Of a stretch of 64,000 bases of DNA, positions 8,783 to 64,000 are shown one piece after another. A program made the translations under genes and the position numbers. Position 1 is the first letter of the stretch. Each line of letters starts with the position of its first letter. Location of the stretch: assembly GCA_045117315.1 (NCBI GenBank), contig JBGUNJ010000204.1:4378-68377 (forward strand), in the 5' to 3' direction. Below the pieces are notes generated by a model. It searched no databases, was not told where the DNA came from, and saw only the letters and a program-made list of their open reading frames with translations. The stretch comes from Lachnospiraceae bacterium. Lineage in GTDB: Bacteria > Bacillota > Clostridia > Lachnospirales > Lachnospiraceae.

Positions 8783-8814
8783 CAAAAAAGCAGGAAAGTA
8801 AAGGTATCGTAATT

Positions 8815-35368: not shown

Positions 35369-35622
35369 TGGCAAGCAATTGTTTCTAAGACTGCCCTGAT
35401 TAATAAGTAATAGATTAGCATCAAAGTAGAAATTCACTGTTTTTCAATATGATATTGTGCTTTTACCATGGCGCTGTTATATCATATTATTTTTGCTTAA
35501 ACTACACAGTCTAAGGAGTCAGCACATGGTATTCATCAAAAACAAAAAAAGATTTTCGTAATGAAAACAGGTTAATTATCTATCCACCTAATCAACTAAC
35601 AAAAGACTATGAGGATTCGTGA

Positions 35623-39837: not shown

Positions 39838-39877
39838 ACAGCAGACGGAACAGGTTAAAAGGAAAGAAATAGAGAAG

Positions 39878-43483: not shown

Positions 43484-46400
43484 AGAAATAAATGAATTGT
43501 ACGGAAATACTGACTGCAGAGATCTTGGATCCCGTCAACTGGAAGAGTTGAGGGATGGCTTAAAAAACGTTTCACCTGAAGAAATCAAATCGTCATCCGA
43601 TGGGATTATGTATATTAAGCTACTCCATATGTTCAGATTTGCGGTTGCGGAAAATGACAAGTTTCATGGGGAGAATTATCCAAGCCTCCTCAACTCTTTG
43701 CTATCAGTCGGAGAGGATGGACTATACTCTAACAATCTTCGTTTTATTTTTGAATTGATTCAGAATGTTGATGACTGCGATTATCCAAACTCTGAAAACT
43801 GTCGGCTTGATATGCAATTTCGATTTGATGAAGATGAGATTATCCTCACATATAATGAAGTTGGATTTACACCGTTTAACGTTTTTGCTATCACAGGAAT
43901 TGCAGAAGCTGCTAAGAATATTTCTTCTTCAAAAAATGAAATTGGTGAAAAGGGGATTGGATTCAAGTCGGTATTTGGCGTTGCTGATAAAGTCTTGATT
44001 CAAAGCGGCTGGTTTTCTTTTATTCTGAATAAAGAAAACTTTACAGTACCTATTTCAGCATATTCATCATCCTCCGATCCTTACATTGAGGGAACGAAAA
44101 TGACTCTGTATGTTCCCGGGAAAGCAAAGCTTATTTACAGTCAAATCAAAAACCAGTATTGCAAAAAAGAAGCAATCTTCAGTCGAAATCCACTGCTCTT
44201 TCTGAATAAGCTTACGTCTCTGAATATCTTCTTCGACGAATGGAGAAGAATGGAGTTTCATGTGTCTAAGAAAGCACATATGACAGAAGGCGGTATTCAC
44301 AGAGAGGACAATATACAGGTCTTTGTTGACCTGCATGATTATGATAACGGACGAGATACGAATGTAACAGAATCATTTATGTGTACCAGATATACCCTTC
44401 CTGTTACATACAGCAGGGAGGCTTGCCAGGCCCGCTATGGAGATAATACAAAGGTGGGTGAAAATGGCGGGAAAAGAATGCTGTTACAAGCGGTTCTTCC
44501 GACCCCGGAGCATGTTGCAGATGTCGGGAACGGATCATTATACTCTTTCCTCCCTACACAGCTGAAGCTGACTGTGCCGATTGTAATACATGTTCCCTTT
44601 AAGCTGGATGCGTCAAGAGAATTTGTTGATCCGCAGAATCATAATCGTTGGTTTCTTGAATCTTCACAGAAACTGTCAGAATTGATGGAGTATCTGTATA
44701 AAGACTGGTGTAAGACTGTTAGAAGTGACATTGTATTCTTTCTTCCAGGGGCCAGAGAGAGCCTGTTTGCTCCAAACAATGGGAAAGAAAAGTGTCTCAG
44801 TGATAACAAAGATTTCCAGGGGATTCATTTTTTGAAGATGCCTGTCTTTATAACAACAGACGATGAATACTGTCCCCATCAAGATGTTTTTTCTTTTAAC
44901 CCGGATGAAAATGTGATGGATCCGGAAAGAGTATACAAAATGCTTATGGTAGAGGAAAATCTTTTCCTGGTACCTGAAACAGTGAATCCAAGAAAATATG
45001 ATATAAAAATTTTTAAAGATGCAGCTAAGGAACTTCTGCAAAAGGCCATTTCCAACCCGAATGTGACAGAGGAAGCGCTTGAATATTTAGATAGTGTTTC
45101 ATATTTATATGGTCCAAAGGATATTCCTGACAACAAGCAGATTAGCCTGACATGCAGACAGATTGAGATCATTATGAAGCATGAACAGCTTGCGAAGATC
45201 TTTACAGAAGTAACCTGCAGGTTGCTGAAAATGCAAAAAAACATCCAAGTATCCATTGCTGATTTGAAGCCTGTTCCCATTCACAAAGCTGTTCAAGCGG
45301 GCTTTGATAAAAGTGAAACCCCAAAGCGTGTGGAAAGATACTTGGATAAAGTGAATTTGCAAAGTGTATGCTTGGATATTAAGGATAACCAGTATTTGCC
45401 TTGCAGTAACGGTCTTGTATTATCTATGGCAAATCCGACATCATCCTTAGCGTCTTTATGCTTTGCTGTTGATGAAAAGGATACATTTGCAATACGGATA
45501 AAGCTGAAAGAAGCTTCTGAACGCCTGAACCAATTTATTGAAGATGATGCAGGTTCTGCTGAGGATTATTTAAGAGAGCTTCGAAATATCAGGCTGACGG
45601 TTAGGGATTCTTTGGGTAATGAAGGCTACAAAAGCTATATAAATCTAATCCTCCGTTCGGGAACAGAGCGTAAACGTTTTATTCAGGAGCTTATCCAAAA
45701 TGCTGATGATTGTGTATACGATAAAGATATTATCCCAGCATTTTATTTACAACAGGATGGAAGCAAAGTTGTCACACAATATAATGAGGAGGGGTTTACC
45801 CGAGAGAACATCCGCTCTATTACAGCTATTGGGGAATCTACCAAAAACAGACTGCTCAAAGGGGAATATCAGACAATAGGCGAAAAGGGGGTTGGCTTTA
45901 AAACAGTCTTTGCTGTTGCATCTCAGATTAATATATTCAGTGGTGAATACAATTTCTCACTGACAGATGAGGCGCCTACAATTCCAAAGATTTATAAACG
46001 TACTGACCTTAGTAGAGTAGATGGTACAAGGATGGAGATTTTCCTGAAGGGAAACAGGAATATCATCGACTTTAATGAAAAAAACATACTTGAGCTCTGC
46101 CTTTGCCTGAGGCAATTAAAAGAAATCACAATTGGGCCCCACAAAATCAATATATCTGACACTGACGATACAAGAACATTGGTTATTGATGGAAGAAAAC
46201 AGGTATTTAGAAAGTTTGTACATAAGTTTGAAATTTCAGACCCAGATGCGATTAAGGAACGCGCAAGGGGTATGCATGTTGTTTTACCACAGCAGCAGAT
46301 TATTTGCTATGTTCCTGAACGGTTTGGCTCTCAGGAATATCATATTTACAGTGGGCTTCCGACAAGACATATGGTAAAGATCCCTGTTGCTTTCGATGCT

Positions 46401-48188
46401 CCTTTTGAGCTGACGACTTCCAGAGAGCAGATTGAAGAAGATTGCGAGGCATGGAATGGTCGTGTACGTCTGGAAATGTATAGGGCATTAAGGGAACTTA
46501 TTGTCTTTCTTCGAAATGAGCACAGAGTAGATATTCTTAGGCTTACCAGATATGTCCCCAGGTTGAAGGGAAAAATCAGAGAGTACGTGAATGATATTTT
46601 TGATAGCCCCTATTTGACCGGCTACAATTTTTTGGAAATCTTGAAAAACACCGAGATTTTACCAACTTATAATCACGATATATTTGAATCGGCAAACAGT
46701 GGACGAGCTCTGAGGTTTCCTGAAGTGGCACATTTCCTGTTTAAACAGGGCTGTTTTGGGGAGATTGACCCTTCTTCCGTTCTTGATATTAATTCAAAAG
46801 ATTATGAAGCGGCTATTAATGCGCTGGACTGTAAGTCTGCAATGTTTGATCAGGTATTTCCTTTGCTAATGATATACTCTGATAATTACGTACATGATAA
46901 AGAATATAGAACATTACTATATGAATATTTACAGGAATCACCTCATGAATATGCTGATCAGATAAAAAAACTTGCCATTATACCTGTATATGGAAATGTT
47001 CCAGATGCCACACGATTCGTGAAGTGGCAGCCGGACAAGATATTTGTCAAGAAAAATGTAAATAAATCAACGGATGATTATTTCATCTTAAACACGGATG
47101 AGCTTTCAAAAGCTTTCTGTGAAAGAATGTTAAATGTAAACATCAATGAGATGAATGATGAATGGGAACGTAGAAAATATGACGAGAAATTTAGAGCAAT
47201 CCTTGACTGGGAGGATGTAGAAGATATTTACAATATGCTTCTCTATGAATTCAAATATGGGAATGTGCGGAGAAACTATCCTTCCGGTCTACCAATGGAT
47301 TATAAGGAACGTATCCCCCTGAAAAACAGGAATGGGGTAATCGCCCGACAGCATCTGTTCCTCTGTCGGGAAGAAGTAGAATACTTCCCTGTAGCTATAG
47401 TTAAACAGATTACAGTAGCTGATGAATGTGCAAGGATGGCTGAATCAATTGGCAGTACTGATCTCTGTGATGTACATTATGAAGATTTTAATTACGACAA
47501 GCAGTTAGACGAAGATGATATTGAAGTTTTGATGGATGATTACTTTAATAATTCAGATGAGATTCTTAGAGGCTTTTATCAAGACGGGCTTCTGTCGGAT
47601 GAATTATTAGAAGAATATAACCTGAATTATCTGGCGAATAGTCGTGTAGATGACACTATGGATGATGAAGACTTTCCTAATGATCCTGTTTATAACAGAG
47701 AACAGCTGAGAAAGCACGTGAACAAGAAATTTGCTTCGCTGGTAAAAATAATTCCAATTGTTGTCGAAAGGACCGTTTATCGGGGGAAAGACCAAAGCGG
47801 AAATGTTTTTGATTTGCAAAACCGGGATACACGCGAAGGCGCGCTTCATATTTACGCATCATCTAAAAAGTATGGAATTTGTTTCTGCCAAATGTGCAAA
47901 AAGAGGAAGCCTAGCTCATTCATTGAGGTAAATAATCTTCAGATTTTACCCAAATACTATTTTCCTCAGATGAGAGTATCATTATGCCTTGAATGCAGTA
48001 AAATCTTCGAGGGCCTCCGTAAGAATGACTCCGTGCGAAAAGAGTATTTTAATTCGATAAAAAATCAAAAGATTGGAAACGAGGGAAACATTTGTGTTCC
48101 GATTGGTAATGACGAGTCATTAACCTTTACTGCTAAACACTTGGCTGAGATTCAAGAAATATTAAAAAGGTATGGGGATGATATTTAA
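43476..48188 (+). CDS. 1570-aa protein with two sacsin/MORC-like GHKL (Bergerat-fold) ATPase modules and a C-terminal Cys4 cluster
   Basis: There are two N-box-like motifs: RFIFELIQNVDDC (from about 43752) with GEKGIGFKSVFGVADKV, and RFIQELIQNADDC (from about 45687) with GEKGVGFKTVFAVASQI. The C-terminus has CFCQMCKK...CLECSKIF. The ATG overlaps the upstream stop by 8 nt, with gaggaga upstream. Confidence 0.8.
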   Translation: MLREINELYGNTDCRDLGSRQLEELRDGLKNVSPEEIKSSSDGIMYIKLLHMFRFAVAENDKFHGENYPSLLNSLLSVGEDGLYSNNLRFIFELIQNVDDCDYPNSENCRLDMQFRFDEDEIILTYNEVGFTPFNVFAITGIAEAAKNISSSKNEIGEKGIGFKSVFGVADKVLIQSGWFSFILNKENFTVPISAYSSSSDPYIEGTKMTLYVPGKAKLIYSQIKNQYCKKEAIFSRNPLLFLNKLTSLNIFFDEWRRMEFHVSKKAHMTEGGIHREDNIQVFVDLHDYDNGRDTNVTESFMCTRYTLPVTYSREACQARYGDNTKVGENGGKRMLLQAVLPTPEHVADVGNGSLYSFLPTQLKLTVPIVIHVPFKLDASREFVDPQNHNRWFLESSQKLSELMEYLYKDWCKTVRSDIVFFLPGARESLFAPNNGKEKCLSDNKDFQGIHFLKMPVFITTDDEYCPHQDVFSFNPDENVMDPERVYKMLMVEENLFLVPETVNPRKYDIKIFKDAAKELLQKAISNPNVTEEALEYLDSVSYLYGPKDIPDNKQISLTCRQIEIIMKHEQLAKIFTEVTCRLLKMQKNIQVSIADLKPVPIHKAVQAGFDKSETPKRVERYLDKVNLQSVCLDIKDNQYLPCSNGLVLSMANPTSSLASLCFAVDEKDTFAIRIKLKEASERLNQFIEDDAGSAEDYLRELRNIRLTVRDSLGNEGYKSYINLILRSGTERKRFIQELIQNADDCVYDKDIIPAFYLQQDGSKVVTQYNEEGFTRENIRSITAIGESTKNRLLKGEYQTIGEKGVGFKTVFAVASQINIFSGEYNFSLTDEAPTIPKIYKRTDLSRVDGTRMEIFLKGNRNIIDFNEKNILELCLCLRQLKEITIGPHKINISDTDDTRTLVIDGRKQVFRKFVHKFEISDPDAIKERARGMHVVLPQQQIICYVPERFGSQEYHIYSGLPTRHMVKIPVAFDAPFELTTSREQIEEDCEAWNGRVRLEMYRALRELIVFLRNEHRVDILRLTRYVPRLKGKIREYVNDIFDSPYLTGYNFLEILKNTEILPTYNHDIFESANSGRALRFPEVAHFLFKQGCFGEIDPSSVLDINSKDYEAAINALDCKSAMFDQVFPLLMIYSDNYVHDKEYRTLLYEYLQESPHEYADQIKKLAIIPVYGNVPDATRFVKWQPDKIFVKKNVNKSTDDYFILNTDELSKAFCERMLNVNINEMNDEWERRKYDEKFRAILDWEDVEDIYNMLLYEFKYGNVRRNYPSGLPMDYKERIPLKNRNGVIARQHLFLCREEVEYFPVAIVKQITVADECARMAESIGSTDLCDVHYEDFNYDKQLDEDDIEVLMDDYFNNSDEILRGFYQDGLLSDELLEEYNLNYLANSRVDDTMDDEDFPNDPVYNREQLRKHVNKKFASLVKIIPIVVERTVYRGKDQSGNVFDLQNRDTREGALHIYASSKKYGICFCQMCKKRKPSSFIEVNNLQILPKYYFPQMRVSLCLECSKIFEGLRKNDSVRKEYFNSIKNQKIGNEGNICVPIGNDESLTFTAKHLAEIQEILKRYGDDI

Positions 48189-51077: not shown

Positions 51078-52880
51078 TTGTATCATATAGAACAGACAAA
51101 AACCGGATTTGCCGTATGGAACGAGGACAATCCGGGGATAATCTTCATGGAGGGGCCCGGGCTGTTTTCGTGGATAGAAAACAGTGAAGGGATCACGATC
51201 AAAGGCTATAAGGGAAACTATCCGGAGATTTTCATTCCAGAGATTATTGACGGAAAGCCCGTGACTAAAATAGGCCGAAGAGCGTTTCATGAATGTAAAA
51301 TTCTGAAAAGCGTGGGAATCCCTGAAAGTGTGGCTGTTATTGGTGACTTGGCTTTCAGCAGATGTGACAGCCTGACGGATATCTCAATCCCGTCCAGTCT
51401 GACCCATATAGGGGATAATGCGTTCTGTCATTGCTCAAGCCTGCGGCGGGTGGAGTTCCCCGACAGCCTGAAAACCATCGGATATTCCGCGTTTTATGGC
51501 TGCCGCAGCCTGACAGAGGTAACCATCCCGCGCAGCGTGACAGAGATCGGGACGGCAGCCTTCTCCGATTGCGCAAGCCTTGGGGTAATTGCGGTCGCGC
51601 AGGATAATCCTGTTTACAGTTCTGAAGACGGATGTCTTTATAACAGCGATTATACCGGGTTGATCTGCTGCCCTGCCGGAAAAACAGGGATGGTGAGTAT
51701 CCGGCAGGGCGTGACCTGCCTGAGGTGGGGAGCCTTTAAATGCTGCGGCGGACTTACGGAAATCAGGATCCCGGACAGCGTGAAAGCAATAAGGAGTGAA
51801 GCCTTCTCTGGCTGCGGCAGCCTGAAGAACATAACAATTCCCGACAGCGTGACCAACATGGGCAGTAACGTGTTTGAGGGATGCGTGCTCTTGACGCGCA
51901 TTGTGATTCCGCGCGGCGCAGTTTCTTTTGACGCGTCCGCTTTTCTGGGCTGCACCAATCTGACCGACATTGAAGTCGTTACGGAAAATCCGATATTTGC
52001 TTCCGCCGACGGTTTACTGTACACGAAGGATTATTCCGCACTGGTCTGCTGTCCCCCTGGGAAAACGGGTTCTGTACGGATTCTTTCGGGTGTGGAAAGA
52101 ATATGGAGTCAGGCATTCCAAGGCTGTTACCGGATCACCAGTGTGGAGATTCCGGACAGCGCGAGAGGGGCCTGGTGGAATTCGTTTTATGACTGCGGCA
52201 GCCTGACAGAGGTCAGGGCATCCGAATGGTTCAAAGCCCGTTTTGCTGATTGCTTTATGGGCAGTCCCTGGTTTAAAAACCAGGGCTGGATCGAAGCAGG
52301 ATTCTTTGAAGACACAACCTGGATCCTGCAGGCAGATGATACTCTGAGGATGGTTTGTGACGGAGATATGGGTGGCTACGATGTGGCCAAGATATTATGG
52401 TTCGGATGGAAAAAGGTCAAGGACCGCGTGCGGCGCCTGACTGTCGACGACGGCGCGAACTCTGTTGGCAGCTTCGCTTTCGATGGGTTCCAGAACATGA
52501 CGGAAGCAGTGCTCCCGGACGGCCTTACCCGGATCGGCTTCCGTGCTTTCTCCCGCTGCCGCCGTCTGAAACAGATTGTCATTCCGGACAGCCTTACGGA
52601 GATTGGCACGGCGGCATTTAAAGGCTGTAAGAGCCTTGAGAATATTGTGATCCCGGAGAATGTCCGTGTGATCGGCCACAGTGCCTTCGCTTACTGCAGC
52701 GGCCTGGTTTCAGTCACGCTGCCCAACAGCGAAGTCCGGATTCAGTCGAATGCTTTCAAGGAATGCGATAGCCTGAAGGAGATCCGCTGCATCGGAAAAG
52801 AAGAAAACTGGAAAGAAGTGATCAATGTCCTGCCCCGGTATTTCGGGCTTGAGATCCGCTTTATCGAAGAAGAGTCGTGA
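51078..52880 (+). CDS. BspA-type leucine-rich repeat protein with no obvious signal peptide
   Basis: Many IP(D/E)SVxxIGxxAFxxCxSLxxIxIP repeats. TTG start at 51078 is preceded by ggagagga. This segment is G+C-rich, unlike its flanks. Confidence 0.75.
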   Translation: MYHIEQTKTGFAVWNEDNPGIIFMEGPGLFSWIENSEGITIKGYKGNYPEIFIPEIIDGKPVTKIGRRAFHECKILKSVGIPESVAVIGDLAFSRCDSLTDISIPSSLTHIGDNAFCHCSSLRRVEFPDSLKTIGYSAFYGCRSLTEVTIPRSVTEIGTAAFSDCASLGVIAVAQDNPVYSSEDGCLYNSDYTGLICCPAGKTGMVSIRQGVTCLRWGAFKCCGGLTEIRIPDSVKAIRSEAFSGCGSLKNITIPDSVTNMGSNVFEGCVLLTRIVIPRGAVSFDASAFLGCTNLTDIEVVTENPIFASADGLLYTKDYSALVCCPPGKTGSVRILSGVERIWSQAFQGCYRITSVEIPDSARGAWWNSFYDCGSLTEVRASEWFKARFADCFMGSPWFKNQGWIEAGFFEDTTWILQADDTLRMVCDGDMGGYDVAKILWFGWKKVKDRVRRLTVDDGANSVGSFAFDGFQNMTEAVLPDGLTRIGFRAFSRCRRLKQIVIPDSLTEIGTAAFKGCKSLENIVIPENVRVIGHSAFAYCSGLVSVTLPNSEVRIQSNAFKECDSLKEIRCIGKEENWKEVINVLPRYFGLEIRFIEEES

Positions 52881-53027
52881 CGGGAATGGACATCTGTGGA
52901 TAATGAAACCAGGCGGGGAGTGAATAATAAGAAAACATAAAAAACTAATAACGACAATCCAAAGGACGGAGAATGGATGGTCTGTGAAAAGAAAGGGACT
53001 TTATTTCAGTCCCAAGAGGCATAATAC

Positions 53028-53948
53028 ATGAGGCATAAAGAATACACTATCCAGACATATACAGATATCAGCAAGATTCCCTATGGTCACGCAAGCTCGG
53101 AGATTACTCCCGGCTGCATTGTCCTGGAGGGCGGCGCTTTCCGAGGGCTCTACAACCAGGGCGTGCTGGATGCGCTGATGAAGAACGACATCAATTTTGC
53201 CTGTACTATAGGCACGAGTGCCGGCGCGCTGGCCGGTTTTAACTATACGGCAGGCCTGATCGGAAGGTCCGCGAGAGTCAACCTGACCTACCGCCACTAC
53301 ACGGATTACGTTGGCTGGGGCGCTCTTGCCCACGCCCACAGTCCGGTCCGGCTGGACTTCCTTTTCAATGAATACAATGAGATAGAACCCTTTGATGAAG
53401 AGGCCTTCTTTTCTCCTAAACGGCGCTTTGTGGCCGTCGCCACAGACTGCCTCACAGGAAAGCCGGCATATTTTGAGAAAGGCGAGTGCCGGGATATTTT
53501 CAGCGCAATCAAGGCTTCCGCATCCATGCCCTTTATCTCACCCATGGTGGACGTGGACGGAAGGCCCTGCCTGGATGGCGGGTGCAGCTGCAAGATTCCC
53601 TACCGGTGGGCACTGGACCAGGGATTTAACAAGATCATAGTGGTCCGTACCAAAGATCCGACCTTCCGCAGAAAGGTTTCGAAGAGAAGACACCGGCTCC
53701 ATGCTTATAGCAAATACCCGGCTTTTGCCAAAAGCCTTGCAAACAGCAACCGCAATTACAATCACCAGTGTGACGAGATTGAGAAGCTGGAAAAGAAAGG
53801 GCGGCTCTTTGTGATCGCACCCTCCCAAAAAGTCACTGTCAGCCGCCTGGAGGGGAACATGGATAAACTCGGCAGCCTTTACTGGCTGGGTTATAACGAC
53901 ATGTTAAACCAGCTGGATTCCCTGCGGAATTACCTTGAGAAGAACTGA
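53028..53948 (+). CDS. Patatin-like phospholipase
   Basis: GGAFRGLY (oxyanion GGxRG), GTSAGAL (GxSxG nucleophile) and LDGG (catalytic Asp) are present. RBS aagagg. Confidence 0.85.
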   Translation: MRHKEYTIQTYTDISKIPYGHASSEITPGCIVLEGGAFRGLYNQGVLDALMKNDINFACTIGTSAGALAGFNYTAGLIGRSARVNLTYRHYTDYVGWGALAHAHSPVRLDFLFNEYNEIEPFDEEAFFSPKRRFVAVATDCLTGKPAYFEKGECRDIFSAIKASASMPFISPMVDVDGRPCLDGGCSCKIPYRWALDQGFNKIIVVRTKDPTFRRKVSKRRHRLHAYSKYPAFAKSLANSNRNYNHQCDEIEKLEKKGRLFVIAPSQKVTVSRLEGNMDKLGSLYWLGYNDMLNQLDSLRNYLEKN

Positions 53949-54049
53949 TTGATAAAGAGCATAGGATATCATCTGTGTGAGAACTGACATTTCAGAGGCT
54001 GATGTTTTCAGCGGAAATCCTGAATTGCATCGAAAAAGAGATGGAGGCG

Positions 54050-55408
54050 ATGATGAGACTCATAAATTTGACCTGCCCGAACTGCGGGGCACGGCTTCAG
54101 ATAGATCCTGACAGAAAACAGGTTTACTGCGAACACTGTGGAACAAAACTATTGGTAGATGATAACGTTCATCATATTCAATATGATAATGCTGAGGAAG
54201 CCGGCTATAAGTTTGAAAAAGGCAGACAAAGAGCAATGGCGGAAAGCAGAATGCCAGGCAGTCAGGCCATGCCATATCAGCAGCCTCAGCAGTTCCGATA
54301 TGCGCAGCAAAACCCGCCTAAGAAGAGAAGGACATGGCTTTGGGTACTGGGATGGATCTTCATCTTTCCTATCCCTTTGACTATCCTGATGCTTCGCAAA
54401 AAAGACATGAAACCTGCCATCAAATACGGCATTATTGCTGCGGCATGGATAATATATCTGGCAATCGGAGCATCCGGCAACAGTAAAGACACCAATACTG
54501 CTAAAAAGGAAGAGACTCCTGTAGTCGAGGAAACTGAGAAGGACGTAACTCCTGAAATAGAGGAAAATGAAAAGGAGACGGCTCCTGAAGTCGAGGAAAA
54601 TGAAAAAGAAGCGGCTCCTGAAGTCGAGGAAATTAAATCGGATAACAATGACACAGATGCTGATAAACAAGCTGTGGAAGACAATACAGATGATGAGTTA
54701 TTAACTGATGATAATGCAGATAACGATGGTGGAGCATCTGCGTCTATGGGATTGAAGCCTATCGAAATAGTGGATTCCGGCTATACAATTACCGGTGATA
54801 GTGGTGATTACTATATTCGTTATGGAATCATCCTTTATAATCCAAATCCGGATTATTATCATGAGTTTCCTTCGTTCCGCATTATTGCTGAGGACGAATC
54901 TGGAAATGTATTGGATACAGAAGAGGAGGTTATGCAGTATTTGAACGGCAACAGAGTCAGTGGCTATGCTGGCTCGGCATGTGATCTGAAGGAAAAGCCT
55001 GCGAACGTTACATTTGAAATAATTGACGACCCTGATTTTTGGGTTAAGGGGACTTCCGGAGATCTTGGACTTAATGCTGCGAGTCTGACCAAAACAATTG
55101 ATGGTGGAAGTGGGACAATTGCGGGTAAAATCAATAATCCTACAGAAAATACTTATGATTCTGTTTCTGTTACAGTAATATTCAGAGACTCAGACGGTAA
55201 TATTCTCGGAGGCGATACAACTTATATTGACAATGTCAAGGCAAAGGGATCCACAGCATTTTCCATGGATTTGTTATCGAAGAAATATATGTCTGATCAG
55301 TATGAACTTTATTTTCATAACCATGGAAATAATACGTATGATACTGTTATAGAAGGAACAGATGTTACTTTCGTTAATACTGATGGGTTCCATGGAAAGA
55401 ATCAATAG
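54050..55408 (+). CDS. Zinc-ribbon membrane protein with an acidic repeat linker
   Basis: MMRLINLTCPNCGARLQ...CEHCG is a zinc ribbon. Two TM helices and TPEIEENEKETAPEVEENEKEAAPEVEE repeats follow. Start is after ggagg, at 54050 or 54053. Confidence 0.65.
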   Translation: MMRLINLTCPNCGARLQIDPDRKQVYCEHCGTKLLVDDNVHHIQYDNAEEAGYKFEKGRQRAMAESRMPGSQAMPYQQPQQFRYAQQNPPKKRRTWLWVLGWIFIFPIPLTILMLRKKDMKPAIKYGIIAAAWIIYLAIGASGNSKDTNTAKKEETPVVEETEKDVTPEIEENEKETAPEVEENEKEAAPEVEEIKSDNNDTDADKQAVEDNTDDELLTDDNADNDGGASASMGLKPIEIVDSGYTITGDSGDYYIRYGIILYNPNPDYYHEFPSFRIIAEDESGNVLDTEEEVMQYLNGNRVSGYAGSACDLKEKPANVTFEIIDDPDFWVKGTSGDLGLNAASLTKTIDGGSGTIAGKINNPTENTYDSVSVTVIFRDSDGNILGGDTTYIDNVKAKGSTAFSMDLLSKKYMSDQYELYFHNHGNNTYDTVIEGTDVTFVNTDGFHGKNQ

Positions 55409-55808
55409 TATATCAGGGACGATTGGATTTTAGGGCGAAAGTGTATCCAGGATTCCTTTTGTAAGGCTGGCCCTGTAATGCTCGCAGCAGATGAATCTGG
55501 ATTAACAACAGACACATGTTATAAAAGGGAAGAAAAAAGCCCTCGCAGTATTAATACCTGGAAACTATTTATACAGTCATACCGCGCGGAAATCCGTTAT
55601 AATAGAATCAGATACTGTCGACGCCCCGGCAAGAATGTTTATGCAAGAGTGTTTATAAAGCCGGACATTGGAGTTGGAGTTAATAAGCTAGCAGGTACTT
55701 TGACACTTGTCAGAGCTGGCTGAACAGATATACACAGACCAACGACCTGCCAGCCGTTCCCGGTGAGACCATTAACGGCACAAAGCCTGAAATATGGAGG
55801 ATAGGGGT

Positions 55809-56753
55809 ATGATCATGAAAGCGCTCAGCTGTCCGTATTGCGGAGGCGACCTGAAAGAGTTTGATAAGAACAAAGTACACACATGCCCATATTGCGGGAA
55901 ATCGATTCGTTTCGACAATGAACGCAGCTTCACCTACGAAAAGATTTATACGAAAGAGGATAAGGCCAGGATTCGGGAAGCAGAAGCAGCAGAATCTATC
56001 AGAAGCCAGGAGATTGCTTTTGAAAAAGAAAAGTATTTTGATAAAGAAAAGCGCAAAGAGAAGAAGGGTAGATTCATAGTTGTCGCTTCACTTATCGCGT
56101 TGGTTTTGCTTGGTTTAATTGGCAAACTTGCTATTAGGGAAATTAATGCCCGGAAGAAAGAGGAAATGGTCTATGATCAGTTAGTTGTGGATCAAAACTC
56201 ACCTGAAGATACGATCATAGAGGAGAGAACAAAGAAAGTATCCAAGAGGACTCTTCAGGGTACAGTTTCTTCTGCCAGTGAAATCGTGACATACAAATAT
56301 TACTATACAAATCTTGGTGAGACAGAAAAGGATAAGAAGATTTTCAAGTCAGTTTCAGTTCCCTTCACAAAAGAAAAAACTCTTTTCACATATGATGGCG
56401 TAATCAGTGCAGGATATAACCTTAAGTCAGTAGAGATTGATGTTGACGATGAGAAACAGGTTATTACCGTGACTCTTCCTGAGCCCAGAATTCTGTCCCA
56501 TGAAGTAGATATGGACAGTTTTAGAATATATGACATCAAAAAGTCGATATTTACATCTATGGAAATGGAGGAATACACAGAGTATATTAATGCGCTGAAA
56601 AAATCACAGGAAGAAACACTCAATAATAAAGAAGAATTCTGGGAGCAGGTGAGAACCGGGGCCGAGCTGTCCGTGAAAGAGCTCCTGATTGCGACCGGCG
56701 CTACCGGAGACTACACCATCACCTTTGACCACAAGAGCACGTTTGGATTCTGA
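55809..56753 (+). CDS. Zinc-ribbon plus TM plus DUF4230-like protein
   Basis: CPYCGGDL...CPYCG, then TM (FIVVASLIALVLLGLIG). The C-terminal VTYKYYYTNLGE...VPFTKEKTLFTYDGVISAGYNLKSVEIDVDDEKQVITVTLPEPRILS matches my memory of the DUF4230 pattern. Confidence 0.6.
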   Translation: MIMKALSCPYCGGDLKEFDKNKVHTCPYCGKSIRFDNERSFTYEKIYTKEDKARIREAEAAESIRSQEIAFEKEKYFDKEKRKEKKGRFIVVASLIALVLLGLIGKLAIREINARKKEEMVYDQLVVDQNSPEDTIIEERTKKVSKRTLQGTVSSASEIVTYKYYYTNLGETEKDKKIFKSVSVPFTKEKTLFTYDGVISAGYNLKSVEIDVDDEKQVITVTLPEPRILSHEVDMDSFRIYDIKKSIFTSMEMEEYTEYINALKKSQEETLNNKEEFWEQVRTGAELSVKELLIATGATGDYTITFDHKSTFGF

Positions 56754-56911
56754 CAGAGGACATTCCGGGTATCCAACAGTGTCGTAAATACAGAAACTTT
56801 GAAATGGCGGCCTGGTACAGAGGATGAACGCTAGACTATGTCGGTGAGCACCGCAAACAGAAAACAAGAAGAAAAAACGATCTGTTTAGCTGGGAGGAAA
56901 CTGAACGAGAT

Positions 56912-58096
56912 ATGTTTGGGCTGGAAAACAAAGAGAAGCAGAAGAGAATAGCGAGGCAGGAATTGATCCGCCGCAATGCAGTCTGCCTGTTCGAGGACGG
57001 AATCTCCCAGGAAGATTTTGAGGCAATCGCTTTAGGAGAGTGCCAGCGTACTGAAAATGTTTTGGACGCGCAAGTTGATGGTCCTGTAATACAAGGTATA
57101 ATGTCTGGTCAGCACAGTTTTGCTGAATGGGAATTCAAGATCGATTTCAATGATTATGGACATATTACAGGAAAATACTGGCTGTGGTCTGAGAATGACG
57201 ATACAGAGATTCCTGAAATGGTTGCTGAGAATATATGTCAAGCCCTGAGATATTATCAACCTGCGCCATACTATGAACAGTCTGAAACTTACGAGAGCGA
57301 CGAACCTGAGCATGAGAACTCAGCGGTTCACCACATATCTTTCTGTCCCTATTGTGGCAGCAAGCAGTATGAAGCGAATCCCAATTTCTGCCTGGTATGC
57401 GGAAAGAGACTTTCTTCAACAGACAATTCCTCTGCGCAGCAAAATGAAAACGCGGACTATAATAATAGATTCTCATACGGTACAGGACCCGCAGCTGGGG
57501 CCGCATTCGCACATGGTACAGGACCCGCAGCCGGACCCGGATTCTCACATGGGACAGGACCCGCAGCCGGGTCTGAATCTTTATATGGGACAGGTCCTGC
57601 ATCCCCAACAAGATTCCCGGCCGGAACGAATACTGCTGAAAATGTTTCGGTGACGAATACTTCCAATACCCGAATGCTTCCCGTAACAGCTGTGGAAGTC
57701 AAATGTGAATATTGCGGTGCGCCCACTGTTGTCAGAACTTTCCGCAGGTTTGTGCGCTGCCCCTATTGCACGAGCAAACTTGCCTTTCCGGGATTTACCT
57801 ACAAGAATATCGACCGCAGATCCGACAAATATTCCTCTGTAAAATACTGGATGAGCTGCCCCTCCTGTCGTGGGGACAATATGTGCCTGTGGCCGTCGTC
57901 CGACCGCTGGATCTGCCAGGACTGCGGATATTTTCTGACTGAACAGCAAAGGCTCAGAACTGTTTTCTGGTTCTGCGATGGCTGCGAAACATATATGAAC
58001 GTGCAGACCGGATTTAAACAGAACAGAAGCGATACCTGGAGATGTACCGAGTGTGGCTTTGAGAATGATGTGAGTCTCAATAATATTGACGAATAG
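56912..58096 (+). CDS. Cytoplasmic multi-zinc-ribbon protein with (H/Y)GTGPAAG repeats
   Basis: There are four or more CxxC pairs (CPYCGS..CLVCG; CEYCGA..CPYCTS; CPSCRG..CQDCG; CDGCET..CTECG). The stop abuts the next ORF (58096/58097). Confidence 0.65.
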   Translation: MFGLENKEKQKRIARQELIRRNAVCLFEDGISQEDFEAIALGECQRTENVLDAQVDGPVIQGIMSGQHSFAEWEFKIDFNDYGHITGKYWLWSENDDTEIPEMVAENICQALRYYQPAPYYEQSETYESDEPEHENSAVHHISFCPYCGSKQYEANPNFCLVCGKRLSSTDNSSAQQNENADYNNRFSYGTGPAAGAAFAHGTGPAAGPGFSHGTGPAAGSESLYGTGPASPTRFPAGTNTAENVSVTNTSNTRMLPVTAVEVKCEYCGAPTVVRTFRRFVRCPYCTSKLAFPGFTYKNIDRRSDKYSSVKYWMSCPSCRGDNMCLWPSSDRWICQDCGYFLTEQQRLRTVFWFCDGCETYMNVQTGFKQNRSDTWRCTECGFENDVSLNNIDE

Positions 58097-58150
58097 ATGC
58101 GCTTTATGAAAAGTCGACTAACAAGAGATATAAACGTGGAGGATGATTTC

Positions 58151-59515
58151 ATGAAAGCAGACAAGACGAAAATTGAAACCAGACTGGAAAACATGAAGAA
58201 CTTCTATATTAAAACCGGAGAACTTCTTGACAACCTTCCGGAGGCTATTCCTGATAAAACAAGAGAACTATTAAAGAGTACGATTCTTGGCGACAACGAT
58301 CTCAAAAAATTAATGGACGGTATTGATTCACACAGGCCGCCTAGAATCTTTCTTATTGGAAGGACAGGAGTTGGAAAAAGCAGTCTTATCAATGCACTAT
58401 GTGGAGCGTACGTTGCAAAGGTTAGTGATACAAAAAGCTGTACAGAAGGAGCACAGGTATATCAATGTCAACATGAGGGCAGGGTACTGATGGAGATACT
58501 CGACACTAGAGGAATCGCGGAATCAGAATCGCTTAACAGCAGTCTGTCTGCAGAACAGATGCTGATCAATCAAATCAATGAATTTTCGCCTGATGTCGCT
58601 ATCATGATGCTCAACTGCACACACAGGGACGATATCGTGTCAGATGTTGAGTTTATGAAGAAGGTGGCGAAGGACTACGCAGCAACAAATGATTTGAGAC
58701 TGCCTATAGTTGTTGTAGTAAATAAGTGCGATGAGATGGCTCCCGCACGTTTTAAGACACCAGATGAATATCCAAAGAAAAAACTGGAGAAGATTAACGA
58801 AGTTGTACAGTATTACAAAGGGATAATAATGAAAAACGGGTTGAAAATTGATGATATTATCCCTGTAGCATCTCTGATTGACTGGATGACCCCGGATGGC
58901 ATGGAAATCCCCGTTGAAGAGATAGATAATCTTCCAAAACGCGATGTAGAAAATCTGCAGATTGCATTTGACGGCCGTTACAGAATCGAGGAACTCCTTG
59001 ATATATTAGAAGAGGCCATCCAGGACTTTGAAGCTCAGATGGGGTTGAGGATGGCCGCAAGATTGAATGATGTAGTAACAAGAATCGCTAATCACCTTAC
59101 GCATGTTTTTTCGGGACTATCTATGACAGTTGCAGCAACTCCCATTCCAACATCAGATATTTATATTCTTCTTATTCTCCAGAGTTTGCTTGTTGCATTG
59201 ATCGCGTCTCTTAGTGGAAGAGAATTATCTCTGGATGCAGCAAAAGAGTTTGTTCTTAGTGTAGGGGGCGTTGGAGCTTTGGGGTATGGATTGAGGCTTA
59301 CCGCACAGCAGGGAGCTAAGTTCGTTAATGCTATTTGGCCTGGTGCAGGTTCGGCACTAAGTGCAGGTATTGCCGGTTTAGGAACGAATGGAATCGGGAA
59401 AGCTGCCATTGCATATTACATCGATGGACGAAGCATAGAAGAAGCCAAAGAAAAACTTGAAGAGGCAAGAGCAAAGAAAAAAAGTGGGAAAAAACCTTTT
59501 TTCTTAAGTAACTGA
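58151..59515 (+). CDS. TRAFAC-type small GTPase fused to a DUF697/YcjF-like hydrophobic C-terminal domain
   Basis: GRTGVGKSSLINAL (G1, from 58358), DTRG (G3) and NKCD (G4) are present. C-terminal hydrophobic stretches are TPIPTSDIYILLILQSLLVALIASL and GGVGALGYGL...AGIAGLGTNGIGKAAIAYYI. ATG 58151 is preceded by ggagga. Confidence 0.75.
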   Translation: MKADKTKIETRLENMKNFYIKTGELLDNLPEAIPDKTRELLKSTILGDNDLKKLMDGIDSHRPPRIFLIGRTGVGKSSLINALCGAYVAKVSDTKSCTEGAQVYQCQHEGRVLMEILDTRGIAESESLNSSLSAEQMLINQINEFSPDVAIMMLNCTHRDDIVSDVEFMKKVAKDYAATNDLRLPIVVVVNKCDEMAPARFKTPDEYPKKKLEKINEVVQYYKGIIMKNGLKIDDIIPVASLIDWMTPDGMEIPVEEIDNLPKRDVENLQIAFDGRYRIEELLDILEEAIQDFEAQMGLRMAARLNDVVTRIANHLTHVFSGLSMTVAATPIPTSDIYILLILQSLLVALIASLSGRELSLDAAKEFVLSVGGVGALGYGLRLTAQQGAKFVNAIWPGAGSALSAGIAGLGTNGIGKAAIAYYIDGRSIEEAKEKLEEARAKKKSGKKPFFLSN

Positions 59516-59635
59516 GCTGCTCTGTCAAAATTGATACAAATGAAACGGCTAATGTCAGTCACCAAAGACGATTACGAAAATACAGACACAATACCAGTGC
59601 AGTCAGATAACAAATTTTAATCGAGGTATTTGATA

Positions 59636-61291
59636 ATGCTCTCTCCAGAATTAAAGTTGCCCACCGTAGAATTGAAGTATAATTCATTTACGAATAGAAC
59701 AAAAATCCGTTTCAACGGACATGATCCCCGGATTAACAGTCTTGTTGAAAAATATCAGGATAAAATGCTTCAAACCTGGATCAACAAGATTCCTAAAATA
59801 TTCCATGATGAGATGAATGGATATAATTTTGAACTGGTGTTTCACGGGACAAAACGAGATTTTTCAGAGCTTGAAAAAGTATTTGATGCTGTAAAAGAGG
59901 CTGATCCAAAAGTTAATGTCAAACTTTCCCATAAAGTCAAATTAGAGGAACGTGAGGAAAAGCTGAAGAAACTGGATGAACTTCTCAATTGGCTGAAAGA
60001 AAATGAAAACAATCATTTTAACTTGAATGCTTTTTTAACAGACAACCGAAAGCTTTTCGATGAGCCATATTCTTTCTTGATAATAGGTGGAAGGGGATTT
60101 AATACATCAAAGTTGGAGGCAAAAGATATTTCCGTCGAGGAAGTTGAGGATGTGAAAAAACTGGACGACACAGTCCTGAAGGACACGCCTTTACTGATTT
60201 GTGTAGACAGGAAATCGCTCCCGGATCTGCAGGGAATCATTCAATACTTTAAGGCGCGGAAAAGTGATGTACGTGAGGAGCAGATTTTTTTCTACATTCA
60301 TCCGTCAATGGATGCGGGCAATGTTATGCGTATTATCCAGGATCTGGGTATTCAAAAACCTAATATTGTGGAGGGTGCTGACGATGAGAAAATCATGCGT
60401 TATTTCGAGATTTTTCCATTTACTCAATATATTGTCAATGTGACCATGCTTCTTGATGAACAGATTGCTTTTATTGAATCTGTGCTCGATACAGAGGATG
60501 AAAAAACCACTCAAAGCAACGCTCTTGTTCATGCACATTTAAAGGAAATAGATGAAACGATTTCCCGCCTGAAAATAACTGGGGATTTTCTTGAAAAGCG
60601 GGAAGAAATGGAAATACCGGGACGATGGAAAGATATTAAAAGAGATTTCATCGATTTAATTCTGGATTGGAAAAAGAATAAGACGCGGATCACTAATGAA
60701 AATCAGGCATATAGGCAGGCCGAAGAATTTAATGTGGAAATAGGTCGCCTGTATGACAGGTATACACATAATATATTGAAAGACCTGGATTTAGAGAAAG
60801 AGGCTCAAAAACGCATGCTGTCTACCCTGTATGCCTGTGCAAAGACGGATACAGATTATTCACCGGAGCTGCCTCAGATTCCGGTGATAGGAGCAGAGAA
60901 GGTACCCAATCTCATTTTGTATTTTATGGACATGAAAGAAGAGGTAACTGTTAATCCCATGGATGATTTTATGGGATTTTTCCTCAAAGGAGGTATGCAG
61001 CAGCCGATTATCGAGACAGGGTATTATTACAAGAACTGGCGTGAATATGCGGTTAAAGCTGTTGAACCTCTGGCGGATCGCCTGATTGAGCGCTGCTACG
61101 CTGCTCTTCGTGCCTTCGATGCGGAGGCCACTGAGATTTATATAAATCATGTCCAGGAACTTATTGATTTCTATACAGAGGAGCACAAAAAGGCCTCGGA
61201 AAATCTGTCCGCAGAAGAAAAGAAAGTGCAGCAAGATAAGGCCTGGCTCCAGGAATTGACAGACCGGGTGAAGGACATACAGACTGGCTGA
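59636..61291 (+). CDS. 551-aa hypothetical protein, partly coiled-coil, with no P-loop
   Basis: Long ORF in operon position between the GTPase and the ATPase. No Walker A or other catalytic motif is visible. ATG 59636 follows gaggtatttgata. Confidence 0.6.
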   Translation: MLSPELKLPTVELKYNSFTNRTKIRFNGHDPRINSLVEKYQDKMLQTWINKIPKIFHDEMNGYNFELVFHGTKRDFSELEKVFDAVKEADPKVNVKLSHKVKLEEREEKLKKLDELLNWLKENENNHFNLNAFLTDNRKLFDEPYSFLIIGGRGFNTSKLEAKDISVEEVEDVKKLDDTVLKDTPLLICVDRKSLPDLQGIIQYFKARKSDVREEQIFFYIHPSMDAGNVMRIIQDLGIQKPNIVEGADDEKIMRYFEIFPFTQYIVNVTMLLDEQIAFIESVLDTEDEKTTQSNALVHAHLKEIDETISRLKITGDFLEKREEMEIPGRWKDIKRDFIDLILDWKKNKTRITNENQAYRQAEEFNVEIGRLYDRYTHNILKDLDLEKEAQKRMLSTLYACAKTDTDYSPELPQIPVIGAEKVPNLILYFMDMKEEVTVNPMDDFMGFFLKGGMQQPIIETGYYYKNWREYAVKAVEPLADRLIERCYAALRAFDAEATEIYINHVQELIDFYTEEHKKASENLSAEEKKVQQDKAWLQELTDRVKDIQTG

Positions 61292-61385
61292 ATTCTGGAT
61301 TGGTTCATGCAACAGAATAGATTGAGTGATTTCACAGTTAATGAATGGCTGTTCTATCTAATAGATTGATTGAGGCTCTACAAAG

Positions 61386-64000
61386 ATGAATGAAGTTACA
61401 GAAATGCGGAAAAATGAATTACAGCAAGTAGGAGAAATGCAGGTGACTACAGTTTCGGAAGAACCTGAAGTCATGGAAGCCACTCTGGAGAACAGGCTGG
61501 AAATTCTGGGGGAATGGATTCGCAAAAAATATCTGGCCAGGCTTACAGAGATGCAAATTGCTCCTCTACCGGACAATATGATTTCTCTGGAGGATGACTT
61601 GATCGATAATGTCCGTCTCTATCATATTAAGGAGATGGTCTACCAGAAGGGTGAGTCGTCTCTCGACAAGTTCACGACTGTGTTCAACAGTTTATATGCT
61701 TATGACGCGACCCTGTTTGTCATTCTCGATTCAGATGGGAAAAAGACGGACATTTATCTCGGTGTGCGAAATGACGAGATGGATATACAAAAAAAACGTT
61801 CTACTGTAACGCTCGGGGATACCCTGAAAAATGCACTGATTGGACATTTCCCCGGTGTTAAGATTGAAAATGAGGACCGTGAGCATATTCATGTGTTGTG
61901 TAAAAAAATTGAAGAGAAACACAATCTGTCTTCTGTAAGTGTGGCTGGAAACAGCAAAGGAAAAAAAGAACAGACGAATGAGCAGTTTGTACAGGGGCTT
62001 GAGAAGCTTCTTCTGTCCATGCAGGGAAAGGAATATATTGGAGTTATCATAGCGGATAAACAGTCTTCTCACGACATCGAGATTATCCGCCAGAATTATA
62101 TGGAACTGTACACCAGGCTGTCCCCGCTTCAGAAAGTGCAGACTACGGAGAGTACGAGCGAGGGAAAAACCAGAAGCCAGTCCTTTACCGAAATGACCGG
62201 CAAACAGAAGGCTGCTATGATCGGCAGTGCGCTGGCTCCTGTTTTGACAACGATCGGGGCGGCAGCTCTGGCCGGAAAAGCGGCAGCAGCTGCTGTTCAG
62301 GCCGCAAGCGGTGTTGTTGAGACCGCTGCCACTACAGTAGGTACAGAAGCTGCAAGTACTACTGCAGGAGGACTTCTCAACGCGGCTTATGGAGGTGTCG
62401 GCGGCGCTGGCCTCATGATGGTTGGCGGTCAGGTGGGAAGTCAGCTAGGCAGCCTGATCAATTCCCTGGCTCCTGTGGAGACAATTTCCGAGACCACTTC
62501 GAAATCACAGAGTTCTACTGTGGAAAATAAGGCAGTCACCGAAATGCTTCGCCGCATAGACGACATCCTGAAAAGAACGGATGAATTTGACAGCTACGGC
62601 ATGTGGAATGTGGCAGCCTATTTTATATCGGATGATATGTCCGCTGCAGAAATAGCTGCAGGCAATTATCGCTCTCTTATGAACGGAGATGAATCTGGCA
62701 GAGAGGTATCTGCAATCAATTCCTGGAGAATGAATGATCCGAATCTATCCGGCAGCTTTCAGGATCTTGTGAAGAGCCTTTCCAGATTCCGGCACCCGGC
62801 ATTTTTCTATGGATATACCGGTGAATATCGCAATATTGTCAATGCTGCGACTTACATAAGCGGAAAAGAACTGGGGTTGCATATCGGCCTGCCGCGGGCT
62901 TCTGTCCCGGGATTTCCGGTGATTGAACATGCCGAATTTGGGAAAGAAGTATATGCATATCAGCTTGAGGGGGACCAGAAGGAATCCAGGCCCGAGGACC
63001 GGATGACGCTGGGGCGTGTCTTTGATCTGGGGCAGACTACCAAAAAGACAGTCGAACTCGACAACAAAAGCCTGAACATGCACACTTTTATTACTGGCTC
63101 CACTGGTTCCGGAAAAAGCAACTCTGTCTATCAGATACTCTCTGAACTCCATCAGGATCACATTCCTTTCCTTGTCGTGGAGCCGGCAAAGGGTGAGTAT
63201 AAAGATTATTTCGGTTATCTGCCTGATGTCAATGTATATTCTACGAACCCCAATATAGCGCAGATGATCAACATCAATCCATTCAAATTTCCCGAATCTA
63301 TCCATGTACTGGAACATGTCGACGGGCTGATTGAGATTTTCGGTGTCTGCTGGCCTATGTATGATGCCATGCCTGCTTTTTTCAAAAATGCTGTTCTGCG
63401 TTCTTATGAAATGCTAGGGTGGGACCTCGGATCTTCCACATATGACGGAAACTCAAAAACGCCTGAATATCCGGATTTTGACGACCTTGCTATGCAGCTG
63501 GATGAGCTGATCGAGTATTCCGATTATGCCTCCGATATCAAATCAAATTACCGGGGGGCTCTGCTTACACGTGTGAAGTCGCTGACTGTGGGATTAAATA
63601 AATATATCTTCACATCAGAACAGACTTCCTATGAGAAGCTGTTCGATCAGAACTGCATCCTGGATATCAGCAGGGTGAAGTCTTCTGAGACTAAGGCTCT
63701 GCTCATGGGGCTGATAGTGTATATTCTGAATGAGTACAGGATTGATCAGAAGAGAGGAAGCGACGAAGATTTAAAACATGTTACTGTGCTGGAAGAAGCA
63801 CACAATCTTCTGAAAAATACAGCTGCTTCAGGAGAATCCGGTATTATTGGAAAATCCGTAGAAATGCTGACCCAGACTATTGCGGAGATTCGGACATACG
63901 GTGAAGGCTTTATTATCGTCGATCAGTCTCCCTCTTCGGTAGATATTTCAGCAATCAAGAATACAAACACCAAGATTGTCCTGCGCACGCCGGAAACCAA
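61386..64000 (+). CDS. HerA/FtsK-clade (DUF87-like) P-loop ATPase with a long N-terminal region; 3' end is outside the window
   Basis: This ORF is absent from the track because no stop is reached. My own translation from ATG 61386 is open to 64000. It contains ITGSTGSGKSN (Walker A), LVVEPAKGEY and HVTVLEEAHNLL (Walker B-like), plus a G/A-rich hydrophobic stretch at about 62220-62480. Confidence 0.75.
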   Translation, partial: MNEVTEMRKNELQQVGEMQVTTVSEEPEVMEATLENRLEILGEWIRKKYLARLTEMQIAPLPDNMISLEDDLIDNVRLYHIKEMVYQKGESSLDKFTTVFNSLYAYDATLFVILDSDGKKTDIYLGVRNDEMDIQKKRSTVTLGDTLKNALIGHFPGVKIENEDREHIHVLCKKIEEKHNLSSVSVAGNSKGKKEQTNEQFVQGLEKLLLSMQGKEYIGVIIADKQSSHDIEIIRQNYMELYTRLSPLQKVQTTESTSEGKTRSQSFTEMTGKQKAAMIGSALAPVLTTIGAAALAGKAAAAAVQAASGVVETAATTVGTEAASTTAGGLLNAAYGGVGGAGLMMVGGQVGSQLGSLINSLAPVETISETTSKSQSSTVENKAVTEMLRRIDDILKRTDEFDSYGMWNVAAYFISDDMSAAEIAAGNYRSLMNGDESGREVSAINSWRMNDPNLSGSFQDLVKSLSRFRHPAFFYGYTGEYRNIVNAATYISGKELGLHIGLPRASVPGFPVIEHAEFGKEVYAYQLEGDQKESRPEDRMTLGRVFDLGQTTKKTVELDNKSLNMHTFITGSTGSGKSNSVYQILSELHQDHIPFLVVEPAKGEYKDYFGYLPDVNVYSTNPNIAQMININPFKFPESIHVLEHVDGLIEIFGVCWPMYDAMPAFFKNAVLRSYEMLGWDLGSSTYDGNSKTPEYPDFDDLAMQLDELIEYSDYASDIKSNYRGALLTRVKSLTVGLNKYIFTSEQTSYEKLFDQNCILDISRVKSSETKALLMGLIVYILNEYRIDQKRGSDEDLKHVTVLEEAHNLLKNTAASGESGIIGKSVEMLTQTIAEIRTYGEGFIIVDQSPSSVDISAIKNTNTKIVLRTPET

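Follow-up and report, generated by a model that had tools for sequence, protein, structure and literature searches.

The window, as we call the whole stretch of 64,000 nucleotides analysed here, comes from a Lachnospiraceae bacterium (GenBank assembly GCA_045117315.1, contig JBGUNJ010000204.1, positions 4,378 to 68,377 of the forward strand), and this report concerns the genes at its right-hand end, two of which, encoding a 551-residue protein (P551) and an ATPase of the HerA type, are members of a conserved three-gene cassette. A first-pass annotation, made from the letters alone, had described four same-strand open reading frames (ORFs) here as one candidate operon, and the ORF coordinates bear out their positions: a zinc-ribbon gene (56912-58096, + strand, 394 amino acids (aa)), a gene for a GTPase with a DUF697 tail (ORF 58097-59515, + strand), the P551 gene (59636..61291, + strand, 551 aa) and the ATPase gene (61386..64000, + strand), of which 871 codons without a stop lie in the window. 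Homologues in other sequences show all four to be real genes. They occupy an A+T-rich block, as had been noted, with a G+C content of 0.39-0.43 between 58 and 62 kb that contrasts with 0.51-0.52 just upstream, between 51 and 54 kb. The tight spacing stands in so far as the genes share a strand and short spacers, but the abutment at 58096/58097 does not: the GTPase starts at the ATG at 58151, with GGAGG 9 nucleotides (nt) 5' of it, so that the gene proper (58151..59515) encodes 454 aa and the spacer to the zinc-ribbon gene is 54 nt. A database protein 100% identical to the GTPase is likewise 454 aa long, and its close homologues all have 440-454 aa. Scans of 55.3-61.6 kb for consensus promoters and terminators found such sites no more frequently than in shuffled sequence.

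The 3' part of the ATPase gene had been placed beyond the window, and its last 187 residues are indeed encoded past position 64000, as seen on a second contig, L071. This contig was found via a cluster member of the ATPase; it is 100% identical to window positions 51386-64000 over 12,615 nt and runs 10.5 kb past the window end. It gives the ATPase a full length of 1058 aa, with the gene ending at about position 64562, and carries, 183 nt past the ATPase stop, a gene for a 515-aa protein that we call the effector, followed downstream by an acidic 125-aa ORF. Since the effector gene starts 746 nt past the window end, this third member of the cassette was invisible to the first-pass annotation. 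Exact-sequence look-ups with the GTPase of the window (both starts), P551 and the zinc-ribbon protein returned no match.

A conserved cassette of P551, ATPase and effector

A genome scan anchored on an alignment of 24 P551 homologues returned 56 loci, hosted by Lachnospiraceae, Oscillospiraceae, Bacillus/Neobacillus, Streptococcus suis, Periweissella, Turicibacter, Erysipelotrichaceae and Coriobacteriales/Atopobiaceae, with a few from assemblies of Oxalobacter, Bacteroidales and Desulfovibrio. The ATPase gene lies directly downstream of P551 in all loci with enough sequence (about 50 of the 56), and in 46 a third gene on the + strand either adjoins or overlaps the ATPase stop. Across these loci the identity to the window proteins is 58-67% for the ATPase and 23-44% for P551. 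Metagenome relatives with ATPases of 69-73% identity to that of the window have the same trio, which is also present on the megaplasmid of Ruminococcus albus 7, where RefSeq labels the three genes 'hypothetical', 'ATP-binding' and 'hypothetical'. Diderm and actinobacterial assemblies carry the cassette as well, so that a function bound to a single type of cell envelope is improbable.

The remaining two genes of the window behave differently. The zinc-ribbon gene is present in none of the 56 loci and was found only on the identical contig L071. A GTPase homologue occurs in just one of the 56 (L060) and is missing from the 10-kb flanks of all other cassette-bearing genome loci; its place beside the cassette is confined to strains (L001, L002 and L073) that exceed 95% identity to the window. 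Nor is the cassette near GTPase homologues of 72-86% identity that have long flanks (L075, L076, L081, L082, L084 and Catenibacterium L067-70). The proposal that the four genes form one operon or system thus fails on co-conservation, as P551 and the ATPase alone among them travel together across genomes. The functional unit is a three-gene cassette of P551 (component A), ATPase (B) and effector (C), sometimes extended to four by a SUKH immunity protein as component D; the genes for the GTPase-DUF697 and the zinc-ribbon protein are lineage-specific neighbours of it. The locus L060, from the metagenome-assembled genome of an uncultured Eubacteriaceae, is a second, decayed P551/GTPase adjacency in the opposite order: at 8334-10137 what is left of P551, a 69-aa ORF from its N-terminus, immediately precedes a GTPase-DUF697 gene whose product is 65% identical to that of the window, and no ATPase is present there.

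Components of the cassette

Searches of Pfam, NCBIfam, PADLOC and PHROGs returned no match for P551, and its earlier description as a protein lacking a P-loop is upheld, none being present in the sequence or among the conserved columns. A word search returned 128 homologues of about 545 aa and a profile search 672 cluster representatives (50% identity, E<=1e-3), of which 224 score at <=1e-30, all about 540 aa long; no fusion occurs among the 150 cluster representatives listed. The invariant residues cluster in the N-terminal 70 aa or so, with the motifs NSLVEKY and DEMNGYxFE. In the AlphaFold2 model, with a predicted local distance difference test score (pLDDT) of 88.8, two alpha/beta domains are followed by a long helical stalk. 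The best Foldseek matches of this model are IniA, MxA, LeoA and BDLP, with E-values of 1e-3 to 1e-2 and TM-scores of only about 0.2, and for the central alpha/beta domain CheY-like receiver folds are at least as good a fit as Ras-like ones. P551 has no hydrophobic segment and, judged from the model, looks like a cytosolic, dynamin-type scaffold devoid of the nucleotide-binding loop. It matched none of 50,697 phage records and one of 72,556 plasmids. Several loci (L003-L005, L043, L057 and L059) have P551 split in two ORFs of about 140-200 aa and 300-380 aa, and the same split recurs in three independent assemblies of one lineage; such versions could reflect pseudogenisation or a genuine two-part protein.

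The second component is far more conserved, with a mean column identity of 73% in 30 homologues, and its HerA-like character, already recognised from GSTGSGKS and LEEAH, is supported by several searches. The Pfam model for the DUF87/HerA central domain matches residues 550-774 (8.5e-13, above cut-off), which leaves about 550 aa ahead of it, in agreement with the large N-terminal region described before. The HerA models of PADLOC give E-values between 1e-18 and 1e-7 (best 1.4e-18), and the best PDB sequence matches (8yho, 8wiv, 4d2i and 8xau, also 8j4u and 9c1m) are HerA proteins, from defence systems or from Sulfolobus; the HerA equivalog models of NCBIfam score far below their cut-offs. There is one P-loop domain. 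Its Walker A motif GSTGSGKS (63096..63119, + strand, residues 571-578, read from the translation) is invariant in the 30 homologues, as are E803, E804, A805 and H806 of the Walker B region VLEEAH (63786..63803, + strand, residues 801-806). On sequence grounds we therefore assign the ATPase to the HerA clade, with intact Walker A and B motifs. The AlphaFold2 model of this protein (pLDDT 50) derives from a shallow alignment and is unreliable upstream of the P-loop, the insert described below included, and the VirB4 matches that Foldseek returned for so poor a model were discounted as evidence.

Within the N-terminal region lies a Gly/Ala/Ser-rich insert (62193..62465, + strand, residues ~270-360), which is moderately hydrophobic, with a Kyte-Doolittle peak of 1.7 at residues 277-304 and a single weak hydrophobic segment, and whose consensus retains a glycine-zipper-like pattern. 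A weak profile similarity (hhalign probability 80% over 31 columns) links this insert to the segment ahead of the glycine zipper of the effector (L071 14500-14800), which may hint that the like segments of the two proteins associate. Residues 253-868 of the ATPase also match, at 1e-17 and below cut-off, the NCBIfam model 'ser_rich_anae_1', a serine-rich model of 1163 aa; a longer, related family of anaerobes that combines a glycine/serine-rich insert with the HerA layout probably exists.

The effector is built of a leader of about 55 aa, an exchangeable head and a helical/glycine-zipper tail of about 220 aa. The leader is common to the head types (hhalign probability 97.8%), the heads themselves being non-homologous, and the C-terminal 220 aa or so are common to nearly all versions. 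The heads recognised among the 46 third genes are nucleases without exception: Endonuclea_NS_2 (11), LHH (5) and colicin-DNase/WHH (2). The commonest head is the one present in the genome of the window. It has no Pfam family, and a profile search of PDB sequences with it came back empty; its conserved acidic and lysine motifs (E; DD.P; ND.YVDK; E.IQ.KF) lead us to guess at a nuclease of the PD-(D/E)xK type. The WXG100, LXG, EssA, EssB and EsaA families did not match the effector. In Bacillus the order is leader, glycine zipper and HNH nuclease, with SUKH immunity genes next. Component D follows the effector where the head is an HNH-type nuclease: SUKH genes stand directly downstream in 5 loci, all with heads of this type. 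Most other loci have no conserved ORF downstream among those of at least 70 aa; the 125-aa ORF recurs, with 50% identity, behind the effector of L057.

Two further observations concern the start of the effector gene. In L001 and L002, which stem from different samples, both contigs end 5 nt before the effector start codon, which suggests a strain-level polymorphism of this gene; a search of the window found no repeat that would account for these ends. The spacer of 183 nt between ATPase and effector (L071 13178-13360) is unusually long for the cassette and contains, just ahead of the effector start codon, the inverted repeat AAAACCGGA...TCCGGTTTT.

Neighbouring genes and genomic surroundings

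The flanks of the cassette differ in nearly every genome, 150 neighbouring proteins having matches to 152 Pfam families, and no recurrent partner, secretion or transfer gene appears among the families listed for them. Strong PADLOC matches among the neighbours include Cas12a, a type I methyltransferase, DpdF, mad2, PDC-S01, PDC-S04 and PDC-S22. In L003 the cassette sits in a dense defence island amid DUF2357/PDDEXK_7, WYL, AAA_13, DUF4365, DUF4062 and an SLFN-like helicase, and an integrase or recombinase adjoins it both there and in R. albus. In L006, L063 and L065 it lies between flanks that are at least 90% identical to window positions 31.2-35.4 kb and 51.1-54.5 kb, and the corresponding slot of the window is filled by a RE_endonuc gene, PDC-S68, a DrmD-like helicase and a Tiamat-like gene. 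These belong to the defence island upstream in the window (32178-48188), which comprises a methyltransferase (32178-32774), a ResIII helicase that matches type IV restriction models (32741-35368), the small RE_endonuc gene (35720-36133), PDC-S68 (36082-39837; PADLOC E=0), a DrmD-like SNF2 helicase (39827-43483; 6e-110) and a Tiamat TmtA-like protein (43476-48188; 2e-70). On the other side, four tandem paralogous Ser/Thr kinase genes (596-791 aa; L071 15546-23177, equivalent to about 66.9-74.6 kb counted from the window start) follow the 125-aa ORF, and three of the four paralogues carry DUF6273.

The GTPase was described correctly: GRTGVGKSS, DTRG and NKCD are present, and Pfam matches MMR_HSR1 (6.9e-16) and DUF697 (3.7e-7; 30.5 bits versus a cut-off of 27.7), so that the protein combines an Era/EngA-like G domain, one strong transmembrane segment and a DUF697 tail. 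It is a separate and very widespread gene of Firmicutes whose family, with more than 1300 homologous clusters (the best 120 at 72-100% identity), is much larger than the cassette, and Catenibacterium and five further long metagenome loci have it without the cassette. Its best PADLOC matches are to LeoA/LeoBC, with E-values of about 1e-8 and in the P-loop region only. Earlier hints of a kinship between the GTPase and effector tails came from a single BLAST match (E 3e-4) and weak PADLOC matches to LeoB. The GTPase was nonetheless rejected as a stand-in for the third gene, since a tail-to-tail hhalign comparison gave a probability of 0.4% and the genome of the window has an effector of its own. 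The sequence that the window shares with its 95% relative L001 starts some 50-100 nt 5' of the GTPase gene; the whole interval from patatin to GTPase differs in L001, with the zinc-ribbon/DUF4230 stretch replaced.

The multi-zinc-ribbon description of the 394-aa protein also holds, four CxxC...CxxC ribbons being visible, with Pfam zinc-ribbon matches that are all below cut-off. A Gly/Pro-rich repeat, (H/Y)GTGPA, occurs four times at residues ~190-235 (window ~57480-57620), between the first ribbon and the other three. Zinc-ribbon N-termini head three consecutive genes at 54002-58096, which encode a 468-aa membrane protein with FxLYD, a 319-aa DUF4230 protein with a transmembrane segment and this 394-aa protein, and a fourth gene so headed lies at 29676-31073.

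Function of the cassette and its relation to known systems

The first-pass annotation knew of no described system with its gene set, and the pair of P551 and ATPase, which sits among defence genes, fits none in the libraries that we searched. In PADLOC-DB v2.0.0 no system-specific model matched P551 (three orthologues), the effector of the window's genome or the 125-aa ORF; the ATPase matched generic HerA and mad8 P-loop models only, and other effector orthologues gave weak matches (E>=5e-5) to tail regions of LeoB/ZorA. Nor did a search of the literature, by RefSeq accession among other means, find a description of the cassette. SIR2-HerA (Nezha) and DUF4297-HerA (the 'Her' of Gao) resemble it in placing a HerA ATPase beside a killing or DNA-degrading effector in defence islands. 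They differ in that the cassette has three conserved genes instead of two, no SIR2 or DUF4297 partner in the Pfam and PADLOC scans, an ATPase with an N-terminal extension of about 550 aa carrying a glycine-rich insert, and an effector that is modular and sometimes accompanied by a SUKH gene; P551 has no counterpart in either system. A computational proposal termed 'HerA/FtsK capture', which includes DndFGH, couples a HerA/FtsK translocase to nucleases (PMC10853773; PMC12839542). The partners named in that proposal (Orc/Cdc6 AAA+ ATPases, wHTH proteins, D5 helicases and PglZ) are missing from the cassette, and the passages searched mention neither P551 nor an effector with leader and glycine zipper.

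Three other comparisons are instructive. Type VIIb polymorphic toxins (EssC with LXG effectors) share with the cassette a constant N-terminus, nuclease domains of the same Pfam families, SUKH proteins and an ATPase of the FtsK/HerA superfamily. However, EssC is a multi-domain protein and the cassette ATPase has a single HerA-type domain, WXG100, LXG, EssA, EssB and EsaA are absent from the matches listed for 150 cassette neighbours, the variable domain of the cassette effector is enclosed by two constant parts, and immunity genes occur in a minority of loci. The dynamin-like proteins IniA, LeoA, BDLP and DynA, and with them Eleos/LeoABC, resemble the P551 model in their alpha/beta domain and long helical stalk, but P551 is without P-loop or GTPase motifs, the TM-scores are as low as given above, and there is no Leo match in PADLOC. 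As to YcjX-YcjF, with which a membrane-stress role had been compared, the likeness is confined to the DUF697 tail of the neighbouring GTPase, where DUF697 is fused to an Era-like GTPase outside the cassette, and no DUF463 (YcjX) was found in the window genes scanned. What is new, then, is not a HerA protein with an effector in defence islands, which is already known, but P551, the extended ATPase and the effector with leader and glycine zipper.

Our favoured reading, at a probability of roughly one half, is that the cassette is an anti-invader module of HerA plus nuclease. Its mechanism is drawn by analogy from HerA-NurA, SIR2-HerA, DUF4297-HerA and the proposed 'HerA/FtsK capture' (PMC10853773). 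The ATPase would form a ring-shaped motor, engage invading DNA and hold, position, activate or feed the nuclease effector via the constant leader and tail of the latter. P551 would serve as a scaffold or a sensor, perhaps located at the membrane, and the glycine-zipper segments of ATPase and effector could associate there. Phage or plasmid DNA would be destroyed or, as abortive infection, the DNA of the cell itself. The strict gene order, the spacing that is tight in most genomes, the modular nuclease, the intact motifs of the ATPase and the sites in defence islands all argue for this reading, as does the lack of a linked immunity gene for most effectors. Several points weigh against it. No homologue of established function was found for P551 or for the commonest effector head; the SUKH genes, the head swaps behind a constant leader and the contig breaks are hallmarks of secreted polymorphic toxins; glycine zippers and a dynamin-like partner point to membrane activity, which pure DNA capture would not need; the ATPase model is too poor to confirm a HAS barrel or a ring; and the enrichment of defence genes around the cassette is apparent rather than statistical.

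The toxin hallmarks lead to an alternative that we consider possible though doubtful, namely that the cassette is a dedicated machine for interbacterial competition, in which a polymorphic nuclease toxin, recognised by its N-terminal leader, would be exported or loaded into vesicles by the dynamin-like protein together with the ATPase, the latter anchored through its glycine-rich segment, and immunity proteins would shield the siblings. The LHH, WHH, colicin-DNase and Endonuclea_NS_2 heads, swappable behind a constant leader, are of families typical of polymorphic toxins, SUKH immunity genes follow the effector directly in 5 loci, the acidic 125-aa ORF stands behind the effector both here and in L057, and the L001 and L002 contigs break just ahead of the effector start. 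The dynamin-like LeoA has been linked to toxin release. ATPases of the FtsK/HerA superfamily, moreover, power type VII and type IV secretion (PMC3482391, PMC3113570). Yet a conserved membrane channel protein is lacking, P551 having no hydrophobic segment and the ATPase one weak one, and no conserved immunity gene accompanies most effectors of the commonest type or any of the Endonuclea_NS_2 type except that of L057. The recognised heads are all nucleases, where polymorphic toxins usually span a broad range of activities, and neither WXG100, LXG and EssB nor other type VII or type IV partners occur among the listed families. The ATPase, finally, is of the HerA clade by sequence and not EssC- or VirD4-like, and the cassette is located in defence islands. 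In its most specific form, this alternative would make of the cassette a minimal and self-contained delivery device of a new type, in which a single HerA-type ATPase with a glycine-zipper membrane anchor and a nucleotide-free dynamin-like protein would export nuclease toxins that have the leader and glycine-zipper tail in common, or load them into vesicles, and this we regard as unlikely.

The two remaining explanations carry much less weight. A conflict or membrane system of four genes with the GTPase at its centre, as conceived in the first-pass annotation, is already contradicted by synteny and very improbable. The shared strand and short spacers, the block shared with 95% relatives that begins just upstream of the GTPase, and L060 as an independent adjacency of P551 remnant and GTPase speak for it, and a split dynamin-like pair is conceivable, P551 being dynamin-like and the GTPase matching LeoA/LeoBC; these matches, however, are limited to the P-loop region, the GTPase tail is unrelated to that of the effector, and neither the GTPase nor the zinc-ribbon gene keeps company with the cassette in the manner described above. 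Least probable of all is that the ATPase serves DNA transfer or a mobile element, as a conjugative coupling protein, a VirB4-like protein or a packaging ATPase. Weak Pfam matches to TrwB_AAD_bind, FtsK_SpoIIIE and P-loop_TraG, a match to NCBIfam CedD (8.7e-25, far below cut-off), a PHROG terminase match (1.5e-10) and the integrase or recombinase beside the cassette in L003 and R. albus would agree with such a role; on the other side, no relaxase, type IV secretion or capsid gene is found in the window or among the listed families of the neighbours, P551 is all but missing from the phage and plasmid records, and the flanks differ in almost every genome. Downstream of the ATPase, where transfer genes would have marked it as VirB4/TraG-like, lie the effector, the 125-aa ORF and the four kinases. 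The conjugation or secretion and ycjX-ycjF readings were accordingly rejected, their partner genes being missing.

Effector-coupled HerA ATPases are an emerging theme in bacterial immunity of which few partner types are understood. To this theme the cassette adds an obligatory and unannotated partner family (about 670 representatives when clustered at 50% identity), an unusually conserved ATPase, about 60-67% identical across phyla, and an effector built like a polymorphic toxin. For annotation it follows that the GTPase-DUF697 gene should not be grouped with the cassette. If minimal toxin delivery were its function, gut and rumen Firmicutes without type VII secretion could attack neighbouring cells. 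Cultured hosts include Bacillus marasmi, Neobacillus sp. OS1-33, Streptococcus suis 614, Ruminococcus albus 7, Oribacterium spp. and Sellimonas caecigallum. The cassette borders both on anti-phage defence and on interbacterial warfare, and the relation between the two therefore becomes directly testable.

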